A stretch of 64,000 nucleotides of DNA from Candidatus Anstonellales archaeon (GCA_038890745.1 JAWAFD010000001.1:32001-96000); one strand, 5' to 3'. Shown: positions 45,274 to 55,682, counted from the first letter of the stretch. Notes: generated by a model not told the origin, from the letters alone. Numbers and translations are program-made.

Positions 45274-47442
45274 ATGAAAGCCAAAATATTTTTTTTAGTA
45301 GGACTTATTCTTTTTTCACTATTTTTTGCATCAACTCCGGAAGAAGATTTTAATGACTGTCTTTGCCAGTGTCGCTGCATAAACGCGATGGGCTTCAGTT
45401 GCGGTAGCGGAGGGGATGTGTGCGAGTATGACCCTGGAGCTACGCTCTGTGGTTTTGACAGGGCCGCTGAGGACAACGCTGTTTGTTCATGCTATTCTCC
45501 GGGGCTTTGCTATCGCGTGGCACTTGAACCAAGCGGAAGCGATTGTTATAATGATTGTGTAAAATGGTATAACCAAGCCAAAACTCAACCGAAACCAAAA
45601 TCAGTATGCGGGGACAGCATTTGTAGCGAAGATGAGAGCGCGTATTCATGTCCTGAGGACTGCGCACCAAAAGAAGAAGAAAAAAAAGAAAAGTGCGAGA
45701 ATGATAAAGATGATGATGGAGACCATTTGATAGACTGCTTTGATACGGCAGACTGTAGATGTTCAGAGACAATAACAATAACTGTAGTATATGAAGGTGA
45801 GGATGGAAAGCTAAAACCCTTGGTTGGCGCAACATTAAATTTCACATGGAAAGATAAGAATGGCAAAGAAAAACACGCGACAGCGATGACTAATGAGGAA
45901 GGTGCGGCATCCGCAAAGATCGAAGGCGTATGGGGCGGTGATGGTATAATTCAGTACAGTATATATCTCGTAGATCAAAAATTCAAATTTATGGAGAATA
46001 AAGAGCAACTCTATTCTGTAAGCGATGAAATCACGCTTAAAAGCGTGCTTAATCTCCACAAAAAGTATAAGATGACTGGAAATGACCGTATAGTTGCGCG
46101 TATATGGGACAGACTCCATGAAGTTTACGACTTTTATACCAAATCATTGCATGCTAACGTTGATTACCAGATGCCTGAAGAGATTTACGTAAAACCCGAC
46201 GCAAATGGCGGTGCATTTCACGCATATGATTCGGCTACATATAAACAAGATAATGGGATTACATTCCAAAATAAAATATTTAACAGAGGGTTTATGGAAA
46301 GCTCCTCACCGCAGAACTGTGAATGGCATGAGTTCAATCATCATGCAATGATGGCTATCTATGGAGGCATGTGGGATCAAAAAAGAATAAGAAATCATTT
46401 GGGGTGGGACAATCCACAGTCAGATGATTCGTATGTTGAAGGTTTTGCAGAATTCATGTCTTTGCTTGAAACAGTTTATTATGCTGACAGATACCCGCGC
46501 CTTGCAGAACACCCAAGCATATATTACTGGGACGGCACGGCGAGCAATCTTGAGAAAAATTTTAAGATACAGGATGATGAAGAGTTAGCTATAGCGAGCA
46601 TACTTTGGGATCTGTATGACCCACACCGCATGTCTCAAATTGATAAGGATCATATAGAAATAGATAAAACAACACTATGGCAGGTGCTGAGCACCCAGCA
46701 CAAATTCAGCGACGGCCAAACGCGCTATATCCACAACACCAGAGATTTATATGAAGCGGTTAAAGCGATTAACGACCCGCAGTTCAGCAAAAAATATAAA
46801 GATGCTTACGAACCGAACGATGATGGTTGGATGGATGAAGCGCCAGCTCTTGAAAAAATATTCATAACGCATGGCGCATTCTTTGATAAAAATAATAATA
46901 GCAGATGGGATGTGGGCGAAGAAGTTGGGTACACAAGTAAAAAAGGTGAGCCTAGCACAAGGCGCACTGATAAGGAGCTACCGCCCGGCTCATTCATTCG
47001 CGCAAATATAAACAATGGAGAAATTAAAGAAGGTATTGTAAAAGTAAAGGTTACGCACCCGGATCCGTACAGTTATCTCAATTATGAATACGAAAGCAAC
47101 TTTATGGATGGGTTGATAGGCATCGCCCCTCCATATGATACACCTACTATTTGGGAAATAACCGTTACACGCGATGGTTATACGGAAAGCCAACCGATAA
47201 CTTTAACTTCAGAAGAGTATAATGCTAAGTATGACCCCAATAAGGAATACTTCGATTCCAAAGAATTTGTGATAACTAGTATCACCACGCCCGGTTATGA
47301 AGAGGAAGATATTTTTGATGGTCTAGAAGAAAATCCGCCACCGGAGGAGGAAGTGTGCTGCTTACCGGCATTATTGTGTGTTGGTATTTTAACTGTAGCT
47401 TCGCTCTCTAGCATAGGAACATGTAAAAAAGGTCTTCAGTAA
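45274..47442 (+). CDS. Exported Cys-rich zinc metallopeptidase-like surface protein
   Basis: Signal peptide, Cys-rich N-terminus, DxDxD Ca-like motif, HEFNH...EGFAEF gluzincin signature, and a C-terminal CCLPA plus hydrophobic anchor. Confidence 0.75.
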   Translation: MKAKIFFLVGLILFSLFFASTPEEDFNDCLCQCRCINAMGFSCGSGGDVCEYDPGATLCGFDRAAEDNAVCSCYSPGLCYRVALEPSGSDCYNDCVKWYNQAKTQPKPKSVCGDSICSEDESAYSCPEDCAPKEEEKKEKCENDKDDDGDHLIDCFDTADCRCSETITITVVYEGEDGKLKPLVGATLNFTWKDKNGKEKHATAMTNEEGAASAKIEGVWGGDGIIQYSIYLVDQKFKFMENKEQLYSVSDEITLKSVLNLHKKYKMTGNDRIVARIWDRLHEVYDFYTKSLHANVDYQMPEEIYVKPDANGGAFHAYDSATYKQDNGITFQNKIFNRGFMESSSPQNCEWHEFNHHAMMAIYGGMWDQKRIRNHLGWDNPQSDDSYVEGFAEFMSLLETVYYADRYPRLAEHPSIYYWDGTASNLEKNFKIQDDEELAIASILWDLYDPHRMSQIDKDHIEIDKTTLWQVLSTQHKFSDGQTRYIHNTRDLYEAVKAINDPQFSKKYKDAYEPNDDGWMDEAPALEKIFITHGAFFDKNNNSRWDVGEEVGYTSKKGEPSTRRTDKELPPGSFIRANINNGEIKEGIVKVKVTHPDPYSYLNYEYESNFMDGLIGIAPPYDTPTIWEITVTRDGYTESQPITLTSEEYNAKYDPNKEYFDSKEFVITSITTPGYEEEDIFDGLEENPPPEEEVCCLPALLCVGILTVASLSSIGTCKKGLQ

Positions 47443-47513: not shown

Positions 47514-48374
47514 GTGTGGGTGGTAGGATTGTACGAAAAGCTTTTTTTAAGCGGTATGGTCCTTCTTGTTCTTCTCAGCTGCCCTATTACTGAGAAGCTA
47601 GGAGGAAATGGAGGGGGAAAAGGCACGGATTTTTTTGGTACTGGTGGTTTGGAGAATGGTCTGGATGAGGAATTAGGAAGCGGCGGTGGGTCTCTTGTTA
47701 ATCCGGCAGCCTACATGCTCTCACTATGCCCTGAGATAAAAACAACCAGATGGAGGCAGATGTGCGAGGCTGTTTTTAGCATGGATGCAAGAAAGTGCGA
47801 GACTCAGCGCCAGTACGCTATGAAAGAAGGATGCGAAAGCGCGATTGCAGCAGTCAAGAAAGACCCTTCTCTTTGTGAATCAATCAACCCCTACATTACT
47901 GGAATCGACCATAATGGTAATATTGTCGATACTACATTCAAAACAGATTGCTATGGGCAGTATGCGGTAGCAACTTTGGATGAAAGCTACTGCGGCAAGG
48001 CCGTAAGCAAAACTGATTGTGAATACCTCATAAAATTTGAGAAAAAAGAAATTAGTTTAGAACAGTGCAAAGGCGATTCTGTCTGCTTATGGAGGTATGC
48101 AAAATACACAAAAGATAAGAGAGCATGCGAACAGTTAAAACCGGGCTTTGCTGGTGCAGACCCAAAAGCAGAATGTATGGCCATGATTACCGGTGATGAA
48201 AGGTATTGCGATAACATAGAAAGCATAGATTCAAAGTATCATTGCATAGGAATGGCCAGAGCCACCAAAGCGCTGGAATCAGAAGGAGTTTTTCTTATAA
48301 AAGAGTGCAAGGGAAACTCTGATTGCGAGATGGAAGTATTCGATCAAATGGTAAAGTGGGCTGCAAGGAATTAG
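47514..48374 (+). CDS. Exported or lipid-anchored Cys-rich repeat protein
   Basis: LLVLLSC possible lipobox, Gly-rich linker, repeated C-x(5-7)-D-x3-C units; start uncertain. Confidence 0.7.
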   Translation: MWVVGLYEKLFLSGMVLLVLLSCPITEKLGGNGGGKGTDFFGTGGLENGLDEELGSGGGSLVNPAAYMLSLCPEIKTTRWRQMCEAVFSMDARKCETQRQYAMKEGCESAIAAVKKDPSLCESINPYITGIDHNGNIVDTTFKTDCYGQYAVATLDESYCGKAVSKTDCEYLIKFEKKEISLEQCKGDSVCLWRYAKYTKDKRACEQLKPGFAGADPKAECMAMITGDERYCDNIESIDSKYHCIGMARATKALESEGVFLIKECKGNSDCEMEVFDQMVKWAARN

Positions 48375-48813: not shown

Positions 48814-48975
48814 ATGGATAGAGAAGGTAGAGGAAGAGGAGGATTTGGTGGAGAAAGGAAGATGTACCATGCAGTATGCTCTGATTGTGGAGCAGAATGC
48901 GAGGTTCCTTTCGAACCAAAGGAAGGCAGGCCGGTTTACTGCCGGGACTGCTACAGAAACCATAGGAGATTCTAA
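48814..48975 (+). CDS. CxxC-x17-CxxC zinc-finger small protein (53 aa; absent from the ORF track)
   Basis: MDREGRGRGGFGGERKMYHAVCSDCGAECEVPFEPKEGRPVYCRDCYRNHRRF*; GAGGT SD. Confidence 0.88.
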   Translation: MDREGRGRGGFGGERKMYHAVCSDCGAECEVPFEPKEGRPVYCRDCYRNHRRF

Positions 48976-49086: not shown

Positions 49087-49851
49087 ATGCCTGGATGGAA
49101 AGGAATAAGTAAAAAAATGAGAAATATAGTGTATGAGGGCTTGGTTTTTGCAGGAATTGGTGCCAGTATATTTTTTGGTAAAGCTGGCTGTGAGTATATA
49201 TCTGAAAAAGCAACATGGAAGTATGTTGTTTTGAAAAAAGGGGATGATTTTGTTGTAAAAGAGCCGGTGTATGAAGGGCCTTTTGGGAAGTTGCTTAGAT
49301 TCACTGGAAAACCCGGGAAAGAGAGTATAGACAGCTTGTTGAGAAATAATCCGGATTCGGTTATTTTCAAGATGAAAGATTTTGATTCATTGGTTATTTT
49401 CTACCATCCAATAGAATATCCGTGGGGGAAATGGTGCGGGTATTATAGTACAGATGGGAGCATACACCTCTTGGGTGAGGAAATGGGGGCTACTTTAAGG
49501 CATGAACTATACCATAAGTGGCAGTCGCATGGTCAAACACCGGAGGAATTTTCAAAACGAGTGGACATAGGGGTGGAGATGTTAAAAAAATATTTAGAAG
49601 GGAGAATGGAGCCAATGGAAAGAGAGGTTTTTGAGAGTTTTTGGGGATGTTATTTTGATGAATTGCCTGATGGAAACTTCTATACGCGCGAACGCTTAGA
49701 TTCTATCTCAGCTGAACTAAAAGAAATGCGCGGGAAAATGAGTTTGGATGATGCGCTCAGAGAATTAAGCGGATGGGAGTACAATTTTGCTTTGTACATA
49801 ATTGAGCTTGAAGCAAATTCCCGCGTGGGGGATTTTGAGTTATCGGAATAG
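49087..49851 (+). CDS. Membrane-anchored hypothetical protein with an HExxH zincin-like motif
   Basis: N-terminal TM segment, GYY...IHL...TLRHELYHKWQ, and a late ELEAN. Confidence 0.6.
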   Translation: MPGWKGISKKMRNIVYEGLVFAGIGASIFFGKAGCEYISEKATWKYVVLKKGDDFVVKEPVYEGPFGKLLRFTGKPGKESIDSLLRNNPDSVIFKMKDFDSLVIFYHPIEYPWGKWCGYYSTDGSIHLLGEEMGATLRHELYHKWQSHGQTPEEFSKRVDIGVEMLKKYLEGRMEPMEREVFESFWGCYFDELPDGNFYTRERLDSISAELKEMRGKMSLDDALRELSGWEYNFALYIIELEANSRVGDFELSE

Positions 49852-49887
49852 GCAAGATTTAAAAATAATCCTCTCTATAAAAGATAC

Positions 49888-50133
49888 ATGGCATACGTAG
49901 AAACGCTTGTGGCTGGATGGTTAGAAGTCCTAAAAAACATCGGGCCCATGATTTCTGTAATATTAATAATTCTGGGTGGAATTGTGTATGGAATATCAAA
50001 CATGCAACCATCAGAAGTAAGGGGGAAATGGCAGGCTGCTGCAATCGGGATGATTGTTGGTGGGATAATAATAGGCGCGATAGTAGGCGCGGCAGATATA
50101 ATACAGGATGTTTCTTCAAAACTCTTGCAATAA
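49888..50133 (+). CDS. Two-helix pilin-like protein (TrbC/VirB2-, CedA1/TedC-like)
   Basis: 81 aa with two Gly-rich hydrophobic helices joined by the short charged loop PSEVRGKW; first gene of an operon containing a VirB4-like ATPase. Confidence 0.6.
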   Translation: MAYVETLVAGWLEVLKNIGPMISVILIILGGIVYGISNMQPSEVRGKWQAAAIGMIVGGIIIGAIVGAADIIQDVSSKLLQ

Positions 50134-50156
50134 TTTATTGAGGTTGGGGGAGTGTT

Positions 50157-51080
50157 GTGGAACTCGGAATCGCATCCAGCATAGTAGCAATAATGATTAT
50201 CCTATCCGGTATAGCGATAGGGGTAGGAAAGGCAATAGGGAGTAAGCGACTGGAGCTTTTTGGTGTTGAGGAGTTTGCTCAGGCAGTTCTCAATGCAGCG
50301 ATAATTGGTGTTTTTGCAGCTATTGTCACAACAATAACCCAGGTATCCTCAGATATTGATTTTTTAACATGCGGGGCGGGGCTGCCGGAAGAGTTGCAGT
50401 GTCAAATGGCAAATGTTGAAAACACGAGCTTTTCCCTTATGACCGAGACAACAAAAACAAGTTTAACTTTAGGGTATTATGAGTCACTTTTGCTTTATTT
50501 CGGCGCTTTTGACATACAAATTCTAAAAGGGCTGGGGCCGATAAGGGAAACGCTTGGGGATGGAATAAAATTTCTGAATCTAAACAGCACTTTTGCGGCG
50601 ATGAACTCACAGCTTGCAAATTTTATCGCACAAACAATGTTAGAGGTTTTTCTTCCGCTGGGGATAATCTTTAGGTCTTTTTTTGCAACAAGGAAAATTG
50701 GTGGGTTTTTGATAGGTGCTGCGATAGGCTTTTATCTTCTATTTCCGTATTTTATTCTAATTGTGCCATCGCCATTACCCATACTTGATAGTACGGTTGC
50801 CTCATTCAAAGCAATAAATGAAAACGCAAACTACGCAACCATGCCAATAGTCGACCTCAATAACAACTATGCTGTTGCTGAGAAGCTTTATGGGTTAAGC
50901 ACAGGAGATTTTGTGGGGGCATTGATAATGGCGATAAAGGGGCTTGCGGATGCAAATGGAGCATTGCTCCTGTATGTAATAATCGGGCCGGTGATCGCTC
51001 TTGCAGCGAACATTGTTTTTATGCTTGCGATAACGGAAATGCTTGGTTCGCATTTCGTACTTAATGTAGGGGTGATATGA
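50157..51080 (+). CDS. Polytopic membrane protein (VirB6/CedA-like candidate)
   Basis: About 5 TM segments; LPLGIIFRSFFATRKIGGFLIGAAIGFYLLFP motif; overlaps the next gene. Confidence 0.55.
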   Translation: MELGIASSIVAIMIILSGIAIGVGKAIGSKRLELFGVEEFAQAVLNAAIIGVFAAIVTTITQVSSDIDFLTCGAGLPEELQCQMANVENTSFSLMTETTKTSLTLGYYESLLLYFGAFDIQILKGLGPIRETLGDGIKFLNLNSTFAAMNSQLANFIAQTMLEVFLPLGIIFRSFFATRKIGGFLIGAAIGFYLLFPYFILIVPSPLPILDSTVASFKAINENANYATMPIVDLNNNYAVAEKLYGLSTGDFVGALIMAIKGLADANGALLLYVIIGPVIALAANIVFMLAITEMLGSHFVLNVGVI

Positions 51081-51862
51081 TGATAGAGAATAGGTTTGTA
51101 ACGATAGCGTGCTTGATAGTAGCTGTTGCTTCTCTTTTGTACACAATAGCCAGCGGGAATATTTTTGCAGCGCTCATTGCGGTTGTGTTCGCATTTTTAA
51201 CCCTTCTTATGTGGAAATACGGATATCTGGTAATGCCATATTTTTTCGAGAAAACAAAAATAGTTGAGATAAGGTATGGGTATGAGATTCCACCTTCAAG
51301 GGACTACCTGATAAGGAAAACCCCTTCCGGGTATCTTGCAACTAAATTTCTTGGAATAAAACTTCATGAGAGTACATTGGATAAAGGAGAGAAGGAAAGG
51401 GCTTCCCTGCTCGCAAGTTTTGAGAGGGCGATATCAAGTCTAAACAATGTGGTGAAAATTTCTTACCTTCTCGCTCCCCTTGACATCACAAAGCATGTTG
51501 AGGAGATAAAGACACAGAGGAGCATGGCTGAGGTTAAAAGGGCAAAGCTGGGCGCGAAAGAGAAAGAGGAAGCAGTGATCTTGGACAGGCAGATTGCAAT
51601 GTGGAACAGGCTTTTAGAAAGAATAAGTGGTGGGGAGAAGCCGCTGGAGACAATAATCTTTGCATCCACAACCGCAAGCGGGGCGACAAGGGAGGAAGCT
51701 GTTGCAAAGGTGAAAAGACAGGCAAAGGAGATAAGAACTATACTGAGTTCTACTTTAGGGGCTGATGTTGTGGAACTCATGGATAGCGATATGCTGAGAT
51801 GCTTTGAGTGGGAGTTTTTCGCGCCTCCGACGCCAGAAGCTCTAAAAGATGAGGTGTTTTAG
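51077..51862 (+). CDS. Two-TM membrane protein with a cytoplasmic alpha/beta and coiled-coil domain
   Basis: Two N-terminal TM segments; translationally coupled to the ATPase. Confidence 0.6.
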   Translation: MMIENRFVTIACLIVAVASLLYTIASGNIFAALIAVVFAFLTLLMWKYGYLVMPYFFEKTKIVEIRYGYEIPPSRDYLIRKTPSGYLATKFLGIKLHESTLDKGEKERASLLASFERAISSLNNVVKISYLLAPLDITKHVEEIKTQRSMAEVKRAKLGAKEKEEAVILDRQIAMWNRLLERISGGEKPLETIIFASTTASGATREEAVAKVKRQAKEIRTILSSTLGADVVELMDSDMLRCFEWEFFAPPTPEALKDEVF

Positions 51863-53295
51863 TGCTCGAGACAACGCTTGTTTATACGAAAGACCTGGCG
51901 CCGAGAATGCCGCTCGTGCACCCACCAGAGCCAGAGCCATCCCTGCTTGTTTCTGACCCGGATAAGGGGATTTATATTGGAAAAACAAGGTTCCTTAAGG
52001 TTCCTGTATTCTGGGATTTTAGAAAACTCATAAACCCGCATATAGCAATATGCGGAATTACCGGAAGCGGAAAAAGTTATTTGGTTAAGACATTTCTAAC
52101 GAGAGCTGCGCTCATATGGAACAGCAATGCTATAATTCTGGATTGGGTTGGGGAGTATGATAGGTGGGTAAGGCAGGCTGGCGGGAAGGTAATACGGTTG
52201 GGCGAGGAGCATTTGAACCTCCTGGACCTGGGCGGGATGAGCCCATCTGAAAGAATACAGCAGATTCTATCATCGCTTGAAATTCTTGCGGATTTGAAAA
52301 GCTTCCCTGATGAGAGGAACGATATTGAAGAGGCACTGGAGTATGTTTATGAAAAAAAGAAGGAGCCGACGCTTATGGATGTTGTGAGATATTTAGAGAA
52401 CAAAAACAAAAGGGCAATGAGACTGCTGAAAAGGTATACCGTTGAAGGGTCGGATTTTTTTGCGAAGAAATCAACCCTAAAGCTTGAAAAATTACTCACC
52501 TCTGGTTTGGTTTGCATAGACCTTCACTCTCTCCCAACAGAGGAGATGAGAAGTTTGGCCGGCCTAACTATACTGCAGTTCATAAAGGAAAAAATGAGAA
52601 GGAAGGAGATGAAGGAGGAGAAGGGGATAGATTTGTTTGTTGTGCTGGATGAGGCATGGAAGATAGCGCAGGATGAGAGGAGCGATGTTATCACGATAGT
52701 GAGGGAGGGGAGGAAGTATAATTTTGCGCTCATTGTAGCGAGCCAAAACCCAAATGATGTGCATAAAACCATTTTCAGCAATGTAGGGACTATGGTTATC
52801 CTTAGGCTGGTTTTGAAGGAGTTTAGGGAGTATGTGCAGCATTCTCTTGGATATTCGGATTTTATAGATAGTGAGATTGCTAGGTTTGGGGTTGGGGATG
52901 CTGCACTTCATATGATATTTTCTGAAAGAAGGGCGGGTGCCTCAACTTTTCTTTTGAAAAAAATAGATGGGGAGGACCCGCTTTTTGTTTATGCAATAGA
53001 GGGTGGTGGAATGGCGATTGAAATGGAAAGAGAGCAGTTCATAAAACTGCTTCATGGAATGGGGCTAAGCGATGAGCAGATAACTATGGTGAGGCAGGAG
53101 TTTGAGAAAAACGATGGGAAGATGGATGGGGTTAGGCTTGTTGGGATGCTTGAAAAATTTGGGTATGCCAGAAGCGCCATTATTGCGTTCATGAGACAGT
53201 TGGGGGCTGATGAAAGAAGCATAACCCAGCTTTTCGCATTGCTGAAAAGAAGGACTGCTGAAAAAGGGGTTGTTGACCTTTACTTAGAAGAGTGA
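51862..53295 (+). CDS. VirB4/HerA/FtsK-superfamily ATPase (DUF87) with a C-terminal helical extension
   Basis: NPHIAICGITGSGKS Walker A, ILDWVGEY, VVLDEAW Walker B and REGRKY...ASQ arginine finger. Confidence 0.9.
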   Translation: MLETTLVYTKDLAPRMPLVHPPEPEPSLLVSDPDKGIYIGKTRFLKVPVFWDFRKLINPHIAICGITGSGKSYLVKTFLTRAALIWNSNAIILDWVGEYDRWVRQAGGKVIRLGEEHLNLLDLGGMSPSERIQQILSSLEILADLKSFPDERNDIEEALEYVYEKKKEPTLMDVVRYLENKNKRAMRLLKRYTVEGSDFFAKKSTLKLEKLLTSGLVCIDLHSLPTEEMRSLAGLTILQFIKEKMRRKEMKEEKGIDLFVVLDEAWKIAQDERSDVITIVREGRKYNFALIVASQNPNDVHKTIFSNVGTMVILRLVLKEFREYVQHSLGYSDFIDSEIARFGVGDAALHMIFSERRAGASTFLLKKIDGEDPLFVYAIEGGGMAIEMEREQFIKLLHGMGLSDEQITMVRQEFEKNDGKMDGVRLVGMLEKFGYARSAIIAFMRQLGADERSITQLFALLKRRTAEKGVVDLYLEE

Positions 53296-53299
53296 GAAA

Positions 53300-53998
53300 A
53301 TGGAAACGGAAAAAATAGTGATAAAGGCAAAAAGAAAGGGTGAGGAGCAGATCCTCTCCCTTCTTGGGGATTTGGGGTTCAGCAGAATTGAATATGAAGG
53401 TAAGGATATTGTTGTTGAAAAAATAGAAGCAGAGGATATGAAAGGAAAGCCGTTTCTTTTCTATAGAATAGTTTTTGCACCTGATGAGATCGTGCTAGAA
53501 TATGCCGTGCCGCCTAAATTTAACAAAAAGCAAAGGTTTTTGCAGGTATTCCCTGTTTTTTTAACTTCATTGAAGCTTGTGGAGAGGTATTATGAAATAA
53601 ATGCGATTCCGGTTTATAACAATGTAGTAGAGTTTTTGGAGGACATGCAAAAGATGATTGGAGCGGATATGATAGAGGTGCATTCAAAACTCACAGAGCT
53701 TCAGCAGAGGTATGATGAACTGAAGCATAAGTATGAGGAGCTTGTGAGGAGCAGTGAAGAAAATGCAAGGCTTCTTCTGGAATGTGAAAAGAAAAGGGTT
53801 AGCTTGGGAAAGAGGATAGAGGCGCTAGAAGGCATGAGCGAGGAGCTGTTGAAAGAAAGGATATACAAATGGCTGAAGGCACATGATGGCGAGATAGATG
53901 TGGAAGAGTTTGCAAAAATAAATGGAGTCGCACCGCAAAGGGTGGAGGAAGGGCTTGAAATGCTATTAAAAGATGAGTACATAAAGAGGAAAACATGA
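53300..53998 (+). CDS. Coiled-coil protein with a C-terminal winged-helix domain
   Basis: Heptad coiled coil at roughly aa 125-180, then IYKWLKAHDGEIDVEEFAKINGV...EGLEMLLKDEYI. Confidence 0.75.
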   Translation: METEKIVIKAKRKGEEQILSLLGDLGFSRIEYEGKDIVVEKIEAEDMKGKPFLFYRIVFAPDEIVLEYAVPPKFNKKQRFLQVFPVFLTSLKLVERYYEINAIPVYNNVVEFLEDMQKMIGADMIEVHSKLTELQQRYDELKHKYEELVRSSEENARLLLECEKKRVSLGKRIEALEGMSEELLKERIYKWLKAHDGEIDVEEFAKINGVAPQRVEEGLEMLLKDEYIKRKT

Positions 53999-54168
53999 GA
54001 TATAAATTTGAGATCATAGGGGCTTACCCAAAAAGAAGGTTTGCTGTTTACGAAAAGAAGGAGAGCTTTTTTGATAAAGTGAAAAGAATCTTAGGATGGA
54101 AAAAGAAGGAGAAGGAGAAAAAGAAGTCGGAAATAAAAAAAACGGAAGGTGAAGGGGAGAGGAAGTAG
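53995..54168 (+). CDS. Small basic protein (57 aa; absent from the ORF track)
   Basis: ATGA overlap with the upstream stop; MRYKFEIIGAYPKRRFAVYEKKESFFDKVKRILGWKKK... Confidence 0.5.
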   Translation: MRYKFEIIGAYPKRRFAVYEKKESFFDKVKRILGWKKKEKEKKKSEIKKTEGEGERK

Positions 54169-54184: not shown

Positions 54185-54235
54185 ATGGAGGCGAAGCTTG
54201 CTTACATTTAAAAATAAATAACGAGTAAGAATGGC

Positions 54236-54915
54236 ATGGCTGTTGATGCCATTGATGGATGGTATAGGGGGCAAAAAGGAAAAATTTCTAATGAAATAAT
54301 TCCTATTTTTTCGTTAGGCCATTATAAACGTAAAGATGAGGGTGAAGACGAACATTCAAAAGATATCAACCTTTTTTACAAATATGGGTATAAAGACCTT
54401 ATGGATAGGTTTAATAGTAGGTTCAAACAATTGTATGAGAGGCGTTTTAAATCCGATATTGACTTTGATTATGTTTGTGTTTGCCCAACAAGTAAGAAGG
54501 ATCAGTTAATAAATATATGGAAAATATGGTAAAAGAATTTGGAAAGGATACCGGAATTCCATACAAGAGAATATTGAGGAGAAAAAGGGATACAAAACAG
54601 CAGCATACTATGGAAAAGTCTGAAGATAGATATGAAAATGTCAAAGATTCGATATCAGTCGATTTTGATGTCTCTGGCAAAAATATTTTAGTTTTTGATA
54701 ATGTCTGCATTAGCGGAGCAACTTTTGATGAGGTTTTGTCAAAATTAAAAAAGGCGGGAGCTAATAAAGTAATTTTCTTTTGTCTGGGGTTGGGTTCAAA
54801 AGCAAAGGAGAGTGATTTTGATATCAACAAAAATTTTAAGCATAAAGCATCCCATATCATAGAAAACTGGCATTGGCCAAAGGTACCCAAAGCTAAAAGG
54901 ATTTCTCGCAAATAA
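54236..54915 (+). pseudogene. ComF-like phosphoribosyltransferase split by a 1-nt frameshift near 54505..54515
   Basis: ORF1 ends ...DYVCVCPTSKKDQL; ORF2 has LRRKRDTKQQH...RYENVKD and GKNILVFDNVCISGAT. Adding one A gives the continuous reading QLNKYMENM. Confidence 0.75.
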
Positions 54916-55594
54916 AACTACTAAGCTTAATTTTATTAACTCGTTTCAGCAAAGCTAGGATATCATCAACATCTTCAACAAACTCCGCACCGTACCTTTC
55001 TCTTGCTAACATCAAACCTTCATTCGGGTAGATGCCTTCTTTTTTAGCACATAGCAACATTTTACCTTGCTTATACGCAACTGAAATCTGATTCATAGAA
55101 CCGCCTTTTATTTTACTAGCAACTAACAAAACAGCATCGGCTAAACCGGAAGTAATCCTATTTCTAGAAGTATAAGAAAACTTTGTTCCAAAAAATTCTG
55201 GATGATGTTCGCTTAGGATCAGTCCTTGGCTTGCAATTTTTTTGAACAGCTCTGCGTTTTCTTCAGGATAGAGATGATTAAACCCAGAACCAAGAACGGC
55301 AATCGTTTTTCCTTCGGCAGAGAGACATCCCTCATGTGCTGCGGTATCTACCCCTCTTGCACCACCGCTAACTATAATATATTTCCTCTTAGCTAACTCG
55401 TATGCAATATTATAAGCGAATTCGATCGCTATTTTATTAGGATTTCTTGTCCCCACGATCGCAATCATTCTCCCTCTGTTAGCAAGAGAGATATCTCCTG
55501 AATAATACAGAACCTTAGGAGGATTCTCTATTTTCCTTAGATTATTTGGATAATTTGGGTCATTGATAGTTATAGTTTTTATTTCGAGCGTCAT
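54893..55594 (-). CDS. dprA: DNA-processing protein DprA/Smf (Rossmann domain)
   Basis: YPNNLRKIENPP, IAIVGTR, IVSGGARGVDTAAH, TIAVLGSG and RNRITSGL. Confidence 0.92.
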   Translation of the reverse strand: MTLEIKTITINDPNYPNNLRKIENPPKVLYYSGDISLANRGRMIAIVGTRNPNKIAIEFAYNIAYELAKRKYIIVSGGARGVDTAAHEGCLSAEGKTIAVLGSGFNHLYPEENAELFKKIASQGLILSEHHPEFFGTKFSYTSRNRITSGLADAVLLVASKIKGGSMNQISVAYKQGKMLLCAKKEGIYPNEGLMLARERYGAEFVEDVDDILALLKRVNKIKLSSFICEKSF

Positions 55595-55682
55595 ATTAAT
55601 AAGTCGCATTACTGATTTATAAATTTTTGTAAGCTTTAGTTCCGAAGCCAAAACTTTTTAATATTATTCGAGAAATAGGTTT

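Follow-up and report, generated by a model that had tools for sequence, protein, structure and literature searches.

The window considered here is a stretch of 64,000 nucleotides (nt) of DNA from a Candidatus Anstonellales archaeon (GCA_038890745.1, JAWAFD010000001.1:32001-96000; C1:32001-96000 in the contig numbering used below), taken at its full length. The system in question is a cluster of genes at positions 49888 to 54168, which very probably encodes a machine derived from type IV secretion systems (T4SS). A first-pass annotation had proposed that the cluster is an operon related to the archaeal DNA-import systems Ced and Ted. The six co-oriented and tightly packed open reading frames (ORFs) that it described are present in the ORF listing exactly where it had placed them, and are referred to as g1 to g6. 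Together with the elements that precede them, they are as follows (lengths in amino acids, aa):

49858-49885, + strand: TATA-box-like A/T-rich elements TTTAAAAATA and CTATAAAAGA, 3-30 nt 5' of the g1 start, read from the sequence
g1, 49888-50133, + strand: 81 aa, predicted pilin of the VirB2/TrbC/T4SS_pilin superfamily
g2, 50157-51080, + strand: 307 aa, polytopic membrane protein, probably VirB6/CedA-like
g3, 51077-51862, + strand: 261 aa, membrane hairpin and a predicted VirB4 N-terminal-domain fold
g4, 51862-53295, + strand: 477 aa, ATPase domain of the HerA/VirB4 clade with a C-terminal helical extension
g5, 53300-53998, + strand: 232 aa, cytoplasmic; N-terminal alpha/beta part, coiled coil and C-terminal winged helix
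g6, 53995-54168, + strand: 57 aa, lysine-rich ORF with a 4-nt overlap with the g5 stop, a doubtful gene

The spacings from g1 through to g6 are +23, -4, -1, +4 and -4 nt. The TATA-like elements are likely to be the candidate archaeal promoter of the operon, with a leaderless or short-leader mRNA. Since they lie before g1, and a GGAG-type motif can be read 5' of the GTG start of g2, a single transcript from g1 would fit the arrangement. By a Kyte-Doolittle scan, g1 contains two hydrophobic helices and g2 about five hydrophobic segments; g3 has a single hairpin at its N-terminus (residues 5-53), and no hydrophobic segment is seen in g4 or g5. The scan thus agrees with the earlier description of an 81-aa two-helix hydrophobic protein followed by a protein with about five transmembrane segments.

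The host genome amounts to 989,524 bp (0.99 Mb) in 5 contigs and is 93.8% complete. Close relatives carry the names Candidatus Micrarchaeota, Micrarchaeales or Anstonellales, which places the organism in the Micrarchaeota and bears out its earlier description as DPANN-like. The stretch is matched in five public DNA runs, which are hot-spring metagenomes from two studies; two of these may be its source, and no RNA run is listed among the matches.

Two known systems form the background to this analysis. Ced and Ted are both chromosomal and are composed of a VirB2-like pilin, a VirB6-like channel and a VirB4-like ATPase (PMC9905601). CedB and CedD are paralogues in which a transmembrane segment and a VirB4-like N-terminal domain precede a HerA-like ATPase, and both are required for DNA import in Saccharolobus (PMC11868833).

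The pilin-like protein

The product of g1 is a small protein with hydrophobic segments at about residues 11-40 and 48-75, joined by a short polar or basic loop as in VirB2/TrbC, and it has neither a cleavable signal peptide nor a cysteine. An alignment of g1 with 21 homologues (A1, 22 members) has a conserved loop, QPxExRGKWQ, in which Q40 P41, R45 G46 and W48 Q49 are invariant. At E<=0.1, the two Pfam families most commonly matched by the members of A1 are PF18895 (T4SS_pilin), with 15 of 22 members and a best E of 7.3e-6, and PF04956 (TrbC/VirB2), with 8 of 22.

A profile made from A1 gave 107 matches at E<=1e-3 among 1.84 billion representative proteins. Pfam was run at E<=1e-4 on 105 of these, with P0128 (a member of A1) and P0291 (4611 aa) set aside, and 20 of the 105 fall in PF04956 or PF18895. 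Eight pass the curated pilin cut-off (P0222, P0243, P0260, P0265, P0270, P0276, P0282 and P0300); P0222, which is matched by the A1 profile at E 2.5e-15, scores 30.7 bits on TrbC against a cut-off of 27.9. No competing family was found among the 105 proteins beyond two secondary matches on one of them. Sequence searches of the PDB with g1, as a single sequence or as a profile, returned chance-level matches only. Homology of g1 to the conjugative pilins is supported transitively, because the profile of its family reaches proteins that lie above curated cut-offs. The suggestion that the small protein is VirB2-like is therefore supported as membership of the VirB2/TrbC superfamily, through the Pfam families of the A1 members and of the profile matches.

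A motor split over two genes

An AlphaFold2 (AF2) model of g3, built from a 29-sequence alignment (predicted local distance difference test, pLDDT, 80.9), consists of an N-terminal membrane hairpin (about residues 5-53) and a cytoplasmic alpha/beta domain. The top 8 matches of this model in Foldseek are all to R388 TrwK/VirB4 (probability 0.99-1.00, E 7e-3 to 4e-2). The top 5 entries in VIA-align are again all TrwK/VirB4, and later rows align only a helical hairpin of 50-60 residues. In the best of these matches, 8rtd_g, 148 residues are aligned with a Z of 12.2 and a root-mean-square deviation of 3.7 Å. Residues 67-261 of g3 superpose on TrwK 221-381, a section of the VirB4 N-terminal domain that extends up to the ATPase domain. 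Seven of the 29 relatives of g3 match the CedB model (best E 9.5e-5) and five match VirB4_plasma.

The neighbouring g4 matches the Pfam families AAA_10 (9.7e-18), DUF87/HerA central domain (6.1e-17) and TrwB_AAD_bind (1.2e-7). Its matches among the NCBIfam models are:

CedB: E 6.2e-28, 97.8 bits (best), model positions 251-549 of 590
VirB4-like CD1110: E 4.1e-25, 88.2 bits
CedD: E 6.6e-19, 67.9 bits
Other VirB4/TraC models: E 1e-15 to 1e-18
HerA models: E 3e-14 or weaker; repair HerA 49-53 bits

The Walker A residues (G65..G68.G70-K71-S72), the Walker B pair (D263-E264) and R281/R284 do not vary among 37 aligned relatives, so the earlier description of a HerA/VirB4-type ATPase with intact catalytic motifs and arginine holds. 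The ATPase domain starts at about residue 35, which leaves g4 with no N-terminal domain, and a C-terminal helical extension occupies about residues 390-477. As g4 lacks an N-terminal domain and g3 is predicted to have the fold of the VirB4 one, g3 and g4 together would correspond to one CedB/VirB4 protein in two genes. The CedB match points the same way, since it begins at model position 251, so that some 250 positions at the N-terminus are left over, a length that corresponds to g3. The models thus show g3 and g4 to be a predicted split motor of the VirB4/CedB type. The first-pass annotation had listed g3 as a two-transmembrane protein; the membrane hairpin stands, whereas its status as an extra subunit does not, as g3 appears to be the N-terminal part of the motor.

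Had g4 grouped with repair-type HerA, the relationship to Ced and Ted would have been called into doubt. Its score on CedB (97.8 bits) is well above those on repair HerA given above, and the genome has a separate, true repair HerA on contig 3 (C3:6405-7925), which aligns with NF040819 from its first residue at 189 bits and shares 27% identity with g4. Among 11 plasmid proteins matched by tblastn with g4, 5 are annotated as members of the VirB4-like CD1110 family, presumably of the mating-pair formation (MPF) class FATA, and none as HerA. In two of three Firmicutes plasmid operons fetched, a gene for PrgI, which we take to be VirB3-like, lies directly 5' of VirB4, and in one operon a VirB6-like (CD1112) gene is found two genes further upstream. 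The plasmid order of VirB6-like, PrgI and VirB4 matches that of g2, g3 and g4, which supports the T4SS reading.

The polytopic membrane protein

An all-helical AF2 model of g2 was obtained from a 51-sequence alignment (pLDDT 83) and compared by VIA-align with 48,161 chain representatives. R388 TrwI/VirB6 (7o3v_F) is at rank 2 with a Z of 9.3, and the alignment takes in 233 of 261 residues over residues 1-288 of the g2 model. Z>=8 is reached by just two other chains, with alignments of 104 and 159 residues. CedA (NF041796) is the only NCBIfam model matched by several members of the g2 family (6 of 51, best E 0.0036); g2 of the window itself has E 0.48 on it. In the ESM Atlas, a cluster named 'CedA1 domain-containing' appears at rank 11 with a score of 0.91, the family being found on 23% of its members. 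A profile search of the PDB with g2 gave only matches at chance level. These comparisons are suggestive, and on the model g2 is probably a VirB6/CedA-like polytopic protein.

The proteins encoded downstream of the motor

A profile of the g5 family, made from 40 sequences, matches at its C-terminus the winged helix of Sulfolobus CdvB (ESCRT-III; 2xvc, E 1.2e-4), and the remainder matches coiled coils, in keeping with the initial description of a coiled-coil protein with a winged helix-turn-helix. No named family was found for g5 in Pfam, NCBIfam or the ESM Atlas, where only unnamed archaeal clusters are matched. It is nonetheless a real extra subunit, a conserved partner of the motor in both of the paralogous modules described below, with no counterpart in the descriptions of Ced and Ted.

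The small basic ORF of the first-pass annotation exists as the 57-aa, lysine-rich g6, but it is probably not a gene. It has no match in Pfam, NCBIfam or PADLOC, and no homologue among ORFs of at least 45 aa in any fetched locus, including L036 and L002 of the same genus, where the ATPase is 93-94% identical to g4. Being without relatives even there, g6 is a doubtful gene and has been rejected as a subunit of the operon, whose conserved genes thus number five. The proposal of extra subunits beyond those of Ced and Ted thus stands for g5, and falls for g3, which is half of the motor, and for g6. In L002 (6918-11552), g5 is followed by a 752-aa protein with an N-terminus like the P-loop head of SMC/Rad50, and by a 789-aa ORF on the opposite strand.

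A second module and further components

A paralogue of g4 with 51% identity is encoded on contig 2, within a second module (module B; the g1-g5 operon is module A). Further related components, the g2-like arrays and a second pilin-like gene, were found with hidden Markov models (HMMs) of our own alignments, run on the genome. Together with module B, they are:

Module B, C2:64097-70064 (L032 7098-13064): g3', g4', a Zn-ribbon membrane protein, g5' and a large surface protein
g2-like array, C1:232511-239086: six genes, then a 1555-aa secreted protein (region to 243778), found by HMM
g2-like array, C5:27277-34338: at least four genes, beside 1230-aa and 772-aa proteins (region from 21221), found by HMM
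Second pilin-like gene, C4:74501-74830, - strand: 109 aa, A1 profile E 4.4e-6, N-terminal signal-peptide-like segment

In module B, g3' has 271 aa (39% identity to g3), g4' 522 aa and g5' 248 aa (32% to g5). The Zn-ribbon membrane protein, of 133 aa, weakly matches the CD3337/EF1877 mobilome membrane family (E 9.6e-5), and the large protein, of 804 aa, has two hydrophobic segments. Neither a pilin nor g2 was found at this locus. The second pilin-like gene stands alone between unrelated genes.

The B-type arrangement was followed in 21 loci (L032 and L056-L075) from 11 families. The gene for g3' is directly upstream of the ATPase in 20, the Zn-ribbon gene comes next in all 21, g5' is present in all 21 and the large protein in 20. 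Two tandem g3-like genes occur in 9 of these loci. In 6, genes like g2, up to four in tandem, lie just upstream, so that the whole machine forms one long operon in other families of the class. At five B-type loci of families f10-f12 (L065, L066, L070, L071 and L072), the C-terminal helical extension of the ATPase forms a separate ORF of about 100 aa, so that the motor would be in three pieces there.

The six ORFs of the cluster are all in place, but the system extends past its limits, as the paralogous module, the g2-like arrays and the second pilin-like gene lie elsewhere in the genome.

Conservation, synteny and inheritance

A search for homologues of g4, in which 8000 candidates were scored, returned 1242 proteins at E<=1e-3. 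Identity to g4 is 61-94% for the best 120 of the 1242, one of which bears the name 'DNA import protein CedB [uncultured archaeon]'. Across the phylum, the ATPase is found at E<=1e-10 in 182 of 201 sampled genomes, a tally that includes the unpublished genomes G029 and G197, and in 138 of the 152 of high quality. The g1 profile is matched in 167 of the 201. In the families without a pilin (f13, f14, f17, f19, f20, f21, f22 and f25), the ATPase is absent too or gives few or weak matches (f13 3/6, f14 2/10, f20 1/1).

Gene order was compared in L002-L005 and L036-L055, 24 A-type loci in which the ATPase is full-length; L001, a duplicate of L036, and the short-flank loci L006-L031 were set aside. 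Several contigs are cut, and the counts are lower bounds:

g5 directly downstream of the ATPase: 23/24
g3 directly upstream of the ATPase: 17/24
g2 within 2.2 kb of the ATPase: 13/24 (anywhere in the locus, 16)
g1 in the locus: 8/24
purD within 3 kb downstream: 14/24
dprA in the locus: 0/24

The expectation that gene order would be kept in relatives is thus borne out for g3-g4-g5, and in fewer loci for g1 and g2. A detached g2 is separated from the motor by unrelated housekeeping genes. The neighbouring purD and a transglutaminase-like gene recur across the order, and across its families g4 is 61-71% identical.

A tree of 50 sequences was made with IQ-TREE from 46 micrarchaeal ATPases of at least 440 aa (duplicates removed), three VirB4 proteins of the CD1110 family and the HerA of the genome. 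The micrarchaeal sequences group together (SH-aLRT 89). An A clade of 20 sequences contains families f1 and f6 (96). A B clade of 21 sequences spans 11 families (100) and has the A-like sequences from f4, f8 and f9 as its sister group (98). The tree follows taxonomy, and these comparisons of sequences show a system that is vertically inherited at a fixed chromosomal place.

Genes of mobile elements were also sought. No integrase, relaxase or replicon family was found among 66 ORFs of the window scanned with Pfam (12 + 54), in agreement with the first-pass annotation. Over the whole genome, at its completeness of 93.8%, neither of the two families searched, Relaxase PF03432 and the VirD4-type coupling protein PF02534, was matched. 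The earlier idea of a domesticated chromosomal system accords with all of this, given a near-universal presence in the phylum, a fixed locus, a tree that follows taxonomy, and no relaxase, integrase or coupling protein found.

Neighbouring genes and a strain-variable insertion

The rest of the window is largely housekeeping in content, with pentose-phosphate enzymes, glycosyltransferases, FEN1, PCNA, deoxyhypusine synthase and purD, and its GC content is unremarkable. Upstream of g1, a 254-aa ORF at 49087-49851 contains an HExxH motif (HELYH) and matches no family; its homologue is found only in the same-genus locus, at 57% identity, and it is absent from L002. A 53-aa zinc-ribbon protein (CxxC-x17-CxxC) is encoded at 48814-48975 (TIGR04272, 3.8e-21). 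It is 91-93% identical in the two closest relatives, always just 5' of the operon there, and in L002 the small zinc-ribbon gene is followed by g1 with no 254-aa ORF between. Further upstream, two cysteine-rich secreted or membrane proteins of 722 and 286 aa, at 45274-47442 and 47514-48374, have no family match. A 1322-aa ORF at 58950-62918 matches nothing in Pfam at E<=1e-5.

Between the operon and purD lies a strain-variable insertion:

54186-55644, no strand: insertion of 1459 nt
54236-54532 and 54517-54915, + strand: ComF-like phosphoribosyltransferase, split by a frameshift (TIGR00201, 1.6e-9)
54893-55651, - strand: dprA (TIGR00732, 187.7 bits)

In run X4, a contig with a depth of 12.6 continues straight from 54185 to 55645 without the 1459 nt, which indicates a co-occurring strain without the ComF-like/dprA pair. 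Across the phylum, 7 of 201 genomes have a DprA, and none was detected in the same-genus genome (88% complete). An intact ComF-like ORF of 224-247 aa adjoins dprA in 4 of 6 other micrarchaeal loci, in unrelated contexts, and relatives have purD immediately after g5. The two genes make up a small mobile cassette of transformation genes in archaea and are outside the conserved machine. A functional link between it and DNA uptake by the operon was considered and rejected, given its strain-variable nature, its presence in so few genomes and the lack of dprA in all 24 A-type loci.

Proposed function and alternative explanations

The best explanation of these observations is that g1-g5 are one of two paralogous modules, chromosomally fixed across most of the Micrarchaeota. 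That they belong to a T4SS-derived, Ced-like machine is held with high confidence; the overall reading of the first-pass annotation is in this respect supported by the pilin family, the split VirB4/CedB motor, the conservation and the failure to find a relaxase. The job of such a machine may, by analogy, be the import of nucleic acids, which we regard as evenly balanced, and the combined reading of a Ced/Ted-like envelope machine that imports nucleic acids stands at about the same even chance.

From work on R388 and on Ced and Ted, hexamers of g4 would dock at the membrane via g3, next to g2. ATP hydrolysis by g4 would energize the extraction of g1 and its polymerization into a conjugative-type pilus on a platform of g2. 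By analogy with Ced and Ted, the motor would then thread a polymer, a nucleic acid and most likely DNA, across the single membrane at cell contacts. The direction is proposed to be import, which is more plausible than export because nothing for nicking, coupling or exporting DNA is encoded. Module B on contig 2 may work with module A, as CedB does with CedD in the Sulfolobales. DNA as the cargo is favored by the homology with Ced and Ted. The lifestyle, the arrays with surface proteins and the parallel with the Patescibacteria (PMC12102498; 10.64898/2026.06.21.733656) favor host-derived material in general.

A number of observations weigh against this reading in one or other of its parts. Taken alone, g1 is below the Pfam cut-offs, with E 0.014 and 15.9 bits against 26.6 on PF18895 and E 0.097 and 13.3 bits against 27.9 on PF04956. 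The Z of 9.3 between g2 and VirB6 is within the range of unrelated helical proteins, and Foldseek gives no significant match to g2, TrwI/VirB6 being at ranks 8, 22 and 25 (E 0.15-0.24). On the equivalog models g4 scores far below the cut-offs (CedB NF041017, 97.8 against 700 bits; VirB4 TIGR00929, 56.3 against 643) and, by these scores, is a distant, split relative outside the CedB and VirB4 equivalog families. In many relatives g1 and g2 are away from the motor, adjoining it in 8 and 13 of the 24 loci as lower bounds. The outgroups of the tree (three VirB4, one HerA) are on very long branches, that of CD1110 measuring 5.9 changes per site, so the tree says nothing firm on VirB4 versus HerA. 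With regard to function, the winged helix of CdvB is a protein-binding domain, and as that of g5 is closest to it, it provides no argument for DNA binding. The ComF-like/DprA pair is strain-variable and hence lends no support to DNA uptake as a conserved function. The machine is known here from its genes, and its expression, filament and cargo are predictions.

The ATPase also invites a quite different explanation, namely that g4 belongs to a HerA-family repair or anti-phage defence module and that the membrane genes are unrelated neighbours. PADLOC models of defence-type HerA match g4 at up to 1.2e-26 (91.4 bits), with mad8 at 5.2e-25 (86.6 bits). The best PDB matches of the g4 family profile are HerA-type (8wiv 2.8e-19, 8xau 3.3e-18, Sulfolobus HerA 4d2i 1.1e-15), and those of g4 as a single sequence are likewise defence or repair HerA; the VirB4 domain 4ag5 has a weaker E (6.9e-14) but the longest aligned stretch with the profile. 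Judged by sequence score, the ATPase domain alone is not diagnostic between CedB/VirB4 and HerA (97.8 against 91.4 bits), which agrees with the case of CedB and CedD, formerly placed in the HerA clade yet possessing VirB4-like N-terminal domains (PMC11868833). What makes a repair or defence module very improbable is the context. The HerA N-terminal domain is missing from g4, and g3 brings the predicted VirB4 N-terminal fold and a membrane hairpin; g1, g2 and g3 match no PADLOC family, and g5 has a weak coiled-coil match only; the genome's own repair HerA lies elsewhere. Defence islands are usually patchy in distribution, whereas this system is near-universal, with a fixed locus and a tree that follows taxonomy, and the presence of the pilin across families largely tracks that of the ATPase. 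Slightly less probable still is that the operon is the remnant of an integrated conjugative plasmid or element and not a cellular system. Its parts are homologous to conjugation genes, and the closest matches on plasmids are VirB4-like ATPases from elements of Firmicutes. However, the scans of the window, and of the genome for PF03432 and PF02534, found no integrase, relaxase, coupling protein or replication gene; the GC content is unremarkable; the purD and transglutaminase-like neighbours recur across the order; and the identity of the ATPase across its families, 61-71%, goes with a tree that follows taxonomy.

A more serious alternative accepts the same T4SS-derived machine but assigns it to host interaction or feeding, whereby it would attach to the host and move proteins, RNA, nucleotides or other host material. 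We give this a substantial, though minority, share of the probability. The system has been kept by most of a genome-reduced, host-dependent phylum (182/201), in which DprA is rare (7/201), and two g2-like arrays beside secreted proteins of 772-1555 aa, together with a pilin-like gene with a signal-peptide-like segment, have the look of a surface apparatus. In the Patescibacteria, the chromosomal T4SS without a relaxase has been proposed to work in this way and is reported to be essential for epibiotic growth (PMC12102498), and a 2026 preprint (10.64898/2026.06.21.733656) connects the possible T4SS pili of one such bacterium with its use of host RNA as food. The conduit seen between the micrarchaeon ARM-1 and its host has no assigned genes in the available text (PMC11329633), but the same source judges the ARM-1 nanotubes to be derived from the host rather than the symbiont. 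Moreover, the only archaeal relatives whose function has been tested, Ced and Ted, move DNA (PMC9905601, PMC11868833), and the loci examined contain no effector, nuclease or transporter gene that is linked to the operon.

A further reading is that of a symbiont-side apparatus, a conjugative-type pilus and channel, by which Micrarchaeota, and perhaps other DPANN archaea, would take up nucleic acids or other macromolecules of the host, a proposal that we put forward as speculative and rather unlikely. If it were true, it would provide a molecular basis for the host dependence of DPANN archaea and for gene flow from host to symbiont. Motor A, with the pilin and one VirB6-like protein, and motor B, with the Zn-ribbon membrane protein and the 800-aa surface protein, would then divide the building of the pilus and the import of cargo, as has been proposed for CedB and CedD. 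Adaptation to different hosts would come from the VirB6-like arrays that adjoin giant surface proteins.

The DPANN archaea, which depend on other cells for their living, account for a large part of archaeal diversity. Cryo-tomography of the one cultivated micrarchaeon, in the text available, assigns no genes to the tubes or docking structure (PMC11329633). The machine described here supplies concrete candidate genes for the connection between DPANN archaea and their hosts and for the exchange of material. Full-text literature searches, which covered main texts, found no published description of such a system in Micrarchaeota or DPANN, and a term search of the available portions of PMC9905601, PMC12892359 and PMC8784108 gave no relevant mention. 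Prior automatic annotation touches it in one 'CedB' protein name and one 'CedA1 domain' cluster name.

Comparison with known systems

The HerA helicases of repair and defence share the type of ATPase. The N-terminal domain of HerA is a barrel, and g4 has no such domain, nor does PADLOC identify a nuclease or effector partner among its neighbours. An ATPase domain described as VirB4/TraG-like is found in the giant SPEARE-type proteins of nanohaloarchaea, another DPANN lineage, and a role in host interaction has been proposed for it (PMC10266531). There the ATPase is fused to a giant surface protein with Ig repeats, and no operon with a pilin, a VirB6-like protein and a split motor is described in the available text.

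Conjugative T4SS of the MPF-FATA class differ in having a relaxase and a coupling protein, neither of which (PF03432, PF02534) was matched in the genome considered here. The rvh T4SS of the Rickettsiales, which are obligate symbionts, has a duplicated VirB4 and arrays of tandem VirB6 paralogues. The likeness to the two motor modules and two g2-like arrays seen here is one of pattern only, the rvh system being that of diderm bacteria, with an outer-membrane core and a role in effector secretion.

Patescibacteria possess a near-universal, mostly relaxase-less VirB4-based T4SS that is reported to be essential for epibiotic growth (PMC12102498). This chromosomal system of the candidate phyla radiation (CPR) is derived from the monoderm class MPF-FATA, has VirB2-like pilins and belongs to ultra-small, host-dependent cells with one membrane (PMC12102498). 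PF18895, the Pfam family of most g1 members (15/22), is a further point of likeness. The patescibacterial system is bacterial and has a full-length VirB4, whereas the micrarchaeal ATPases form a group of their own in the tree. The parallel suggests a convergent use of relaxase-less T4SS by both radiations of tiny symbionts.

Ted, found in the Thermoproteales and composed of TedA, TedB and TedC, has the same chromosomal three-part core, with components sometimes at separate loci (PMC9905601). TedB is described as a one-piece VirB4 homologue, and the likeness to Ted is drawn here from descriptions, not sequences. Ted loci often hold genes for HerA, Rad50 and ParA-like proteins, which are not linked to the operon here.

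The closest comparison is with Ced of the Sulfolobales and Desulfurococcales (CedA, CedA1, CedA2, CedB, CedD and CedE), which is likewise chromosomal and without a relaxase (PMC11868833, PMC9905601). CedB is the best NCBIfam model both for g4 and for the relatives of g3. The differences are nevertheless considerable. The motor is split here over g3 and g4, and the equivalog cut-offs are missed by a wide margin (97.8 against 700 bits for CedB; a best E of 0.0036 for CedA). No CedA2 is recognized, and there is an extra g5. Module B has, in addition, a Zn-ribbon membrane protein and an approximately 800-aa surface protein, neither of which has a described counterpart in Ced. The hosts of Ced, a system for DNA import between cells that is induced by DNA damage (UV), are crenarchaea, whereas the host here is a mesophile-to-thermophile DPANN symbiont whose system is known from its genes. 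Like g1-g4, Ced combines a VirB2-like pilin, a VirB6-like polytopic protein and an ATPase motor with a transmembrane segment, a VirB4-like N-terminal domain and a HerA-like domain, and its paralogous motors CedB and CedD resemble modules A and B. The domesticated conjugation machines of archaea, represented by Ced and Ted in the Crenarchaeota, would thus extend to the DPANN, with a split motor and new subunits.

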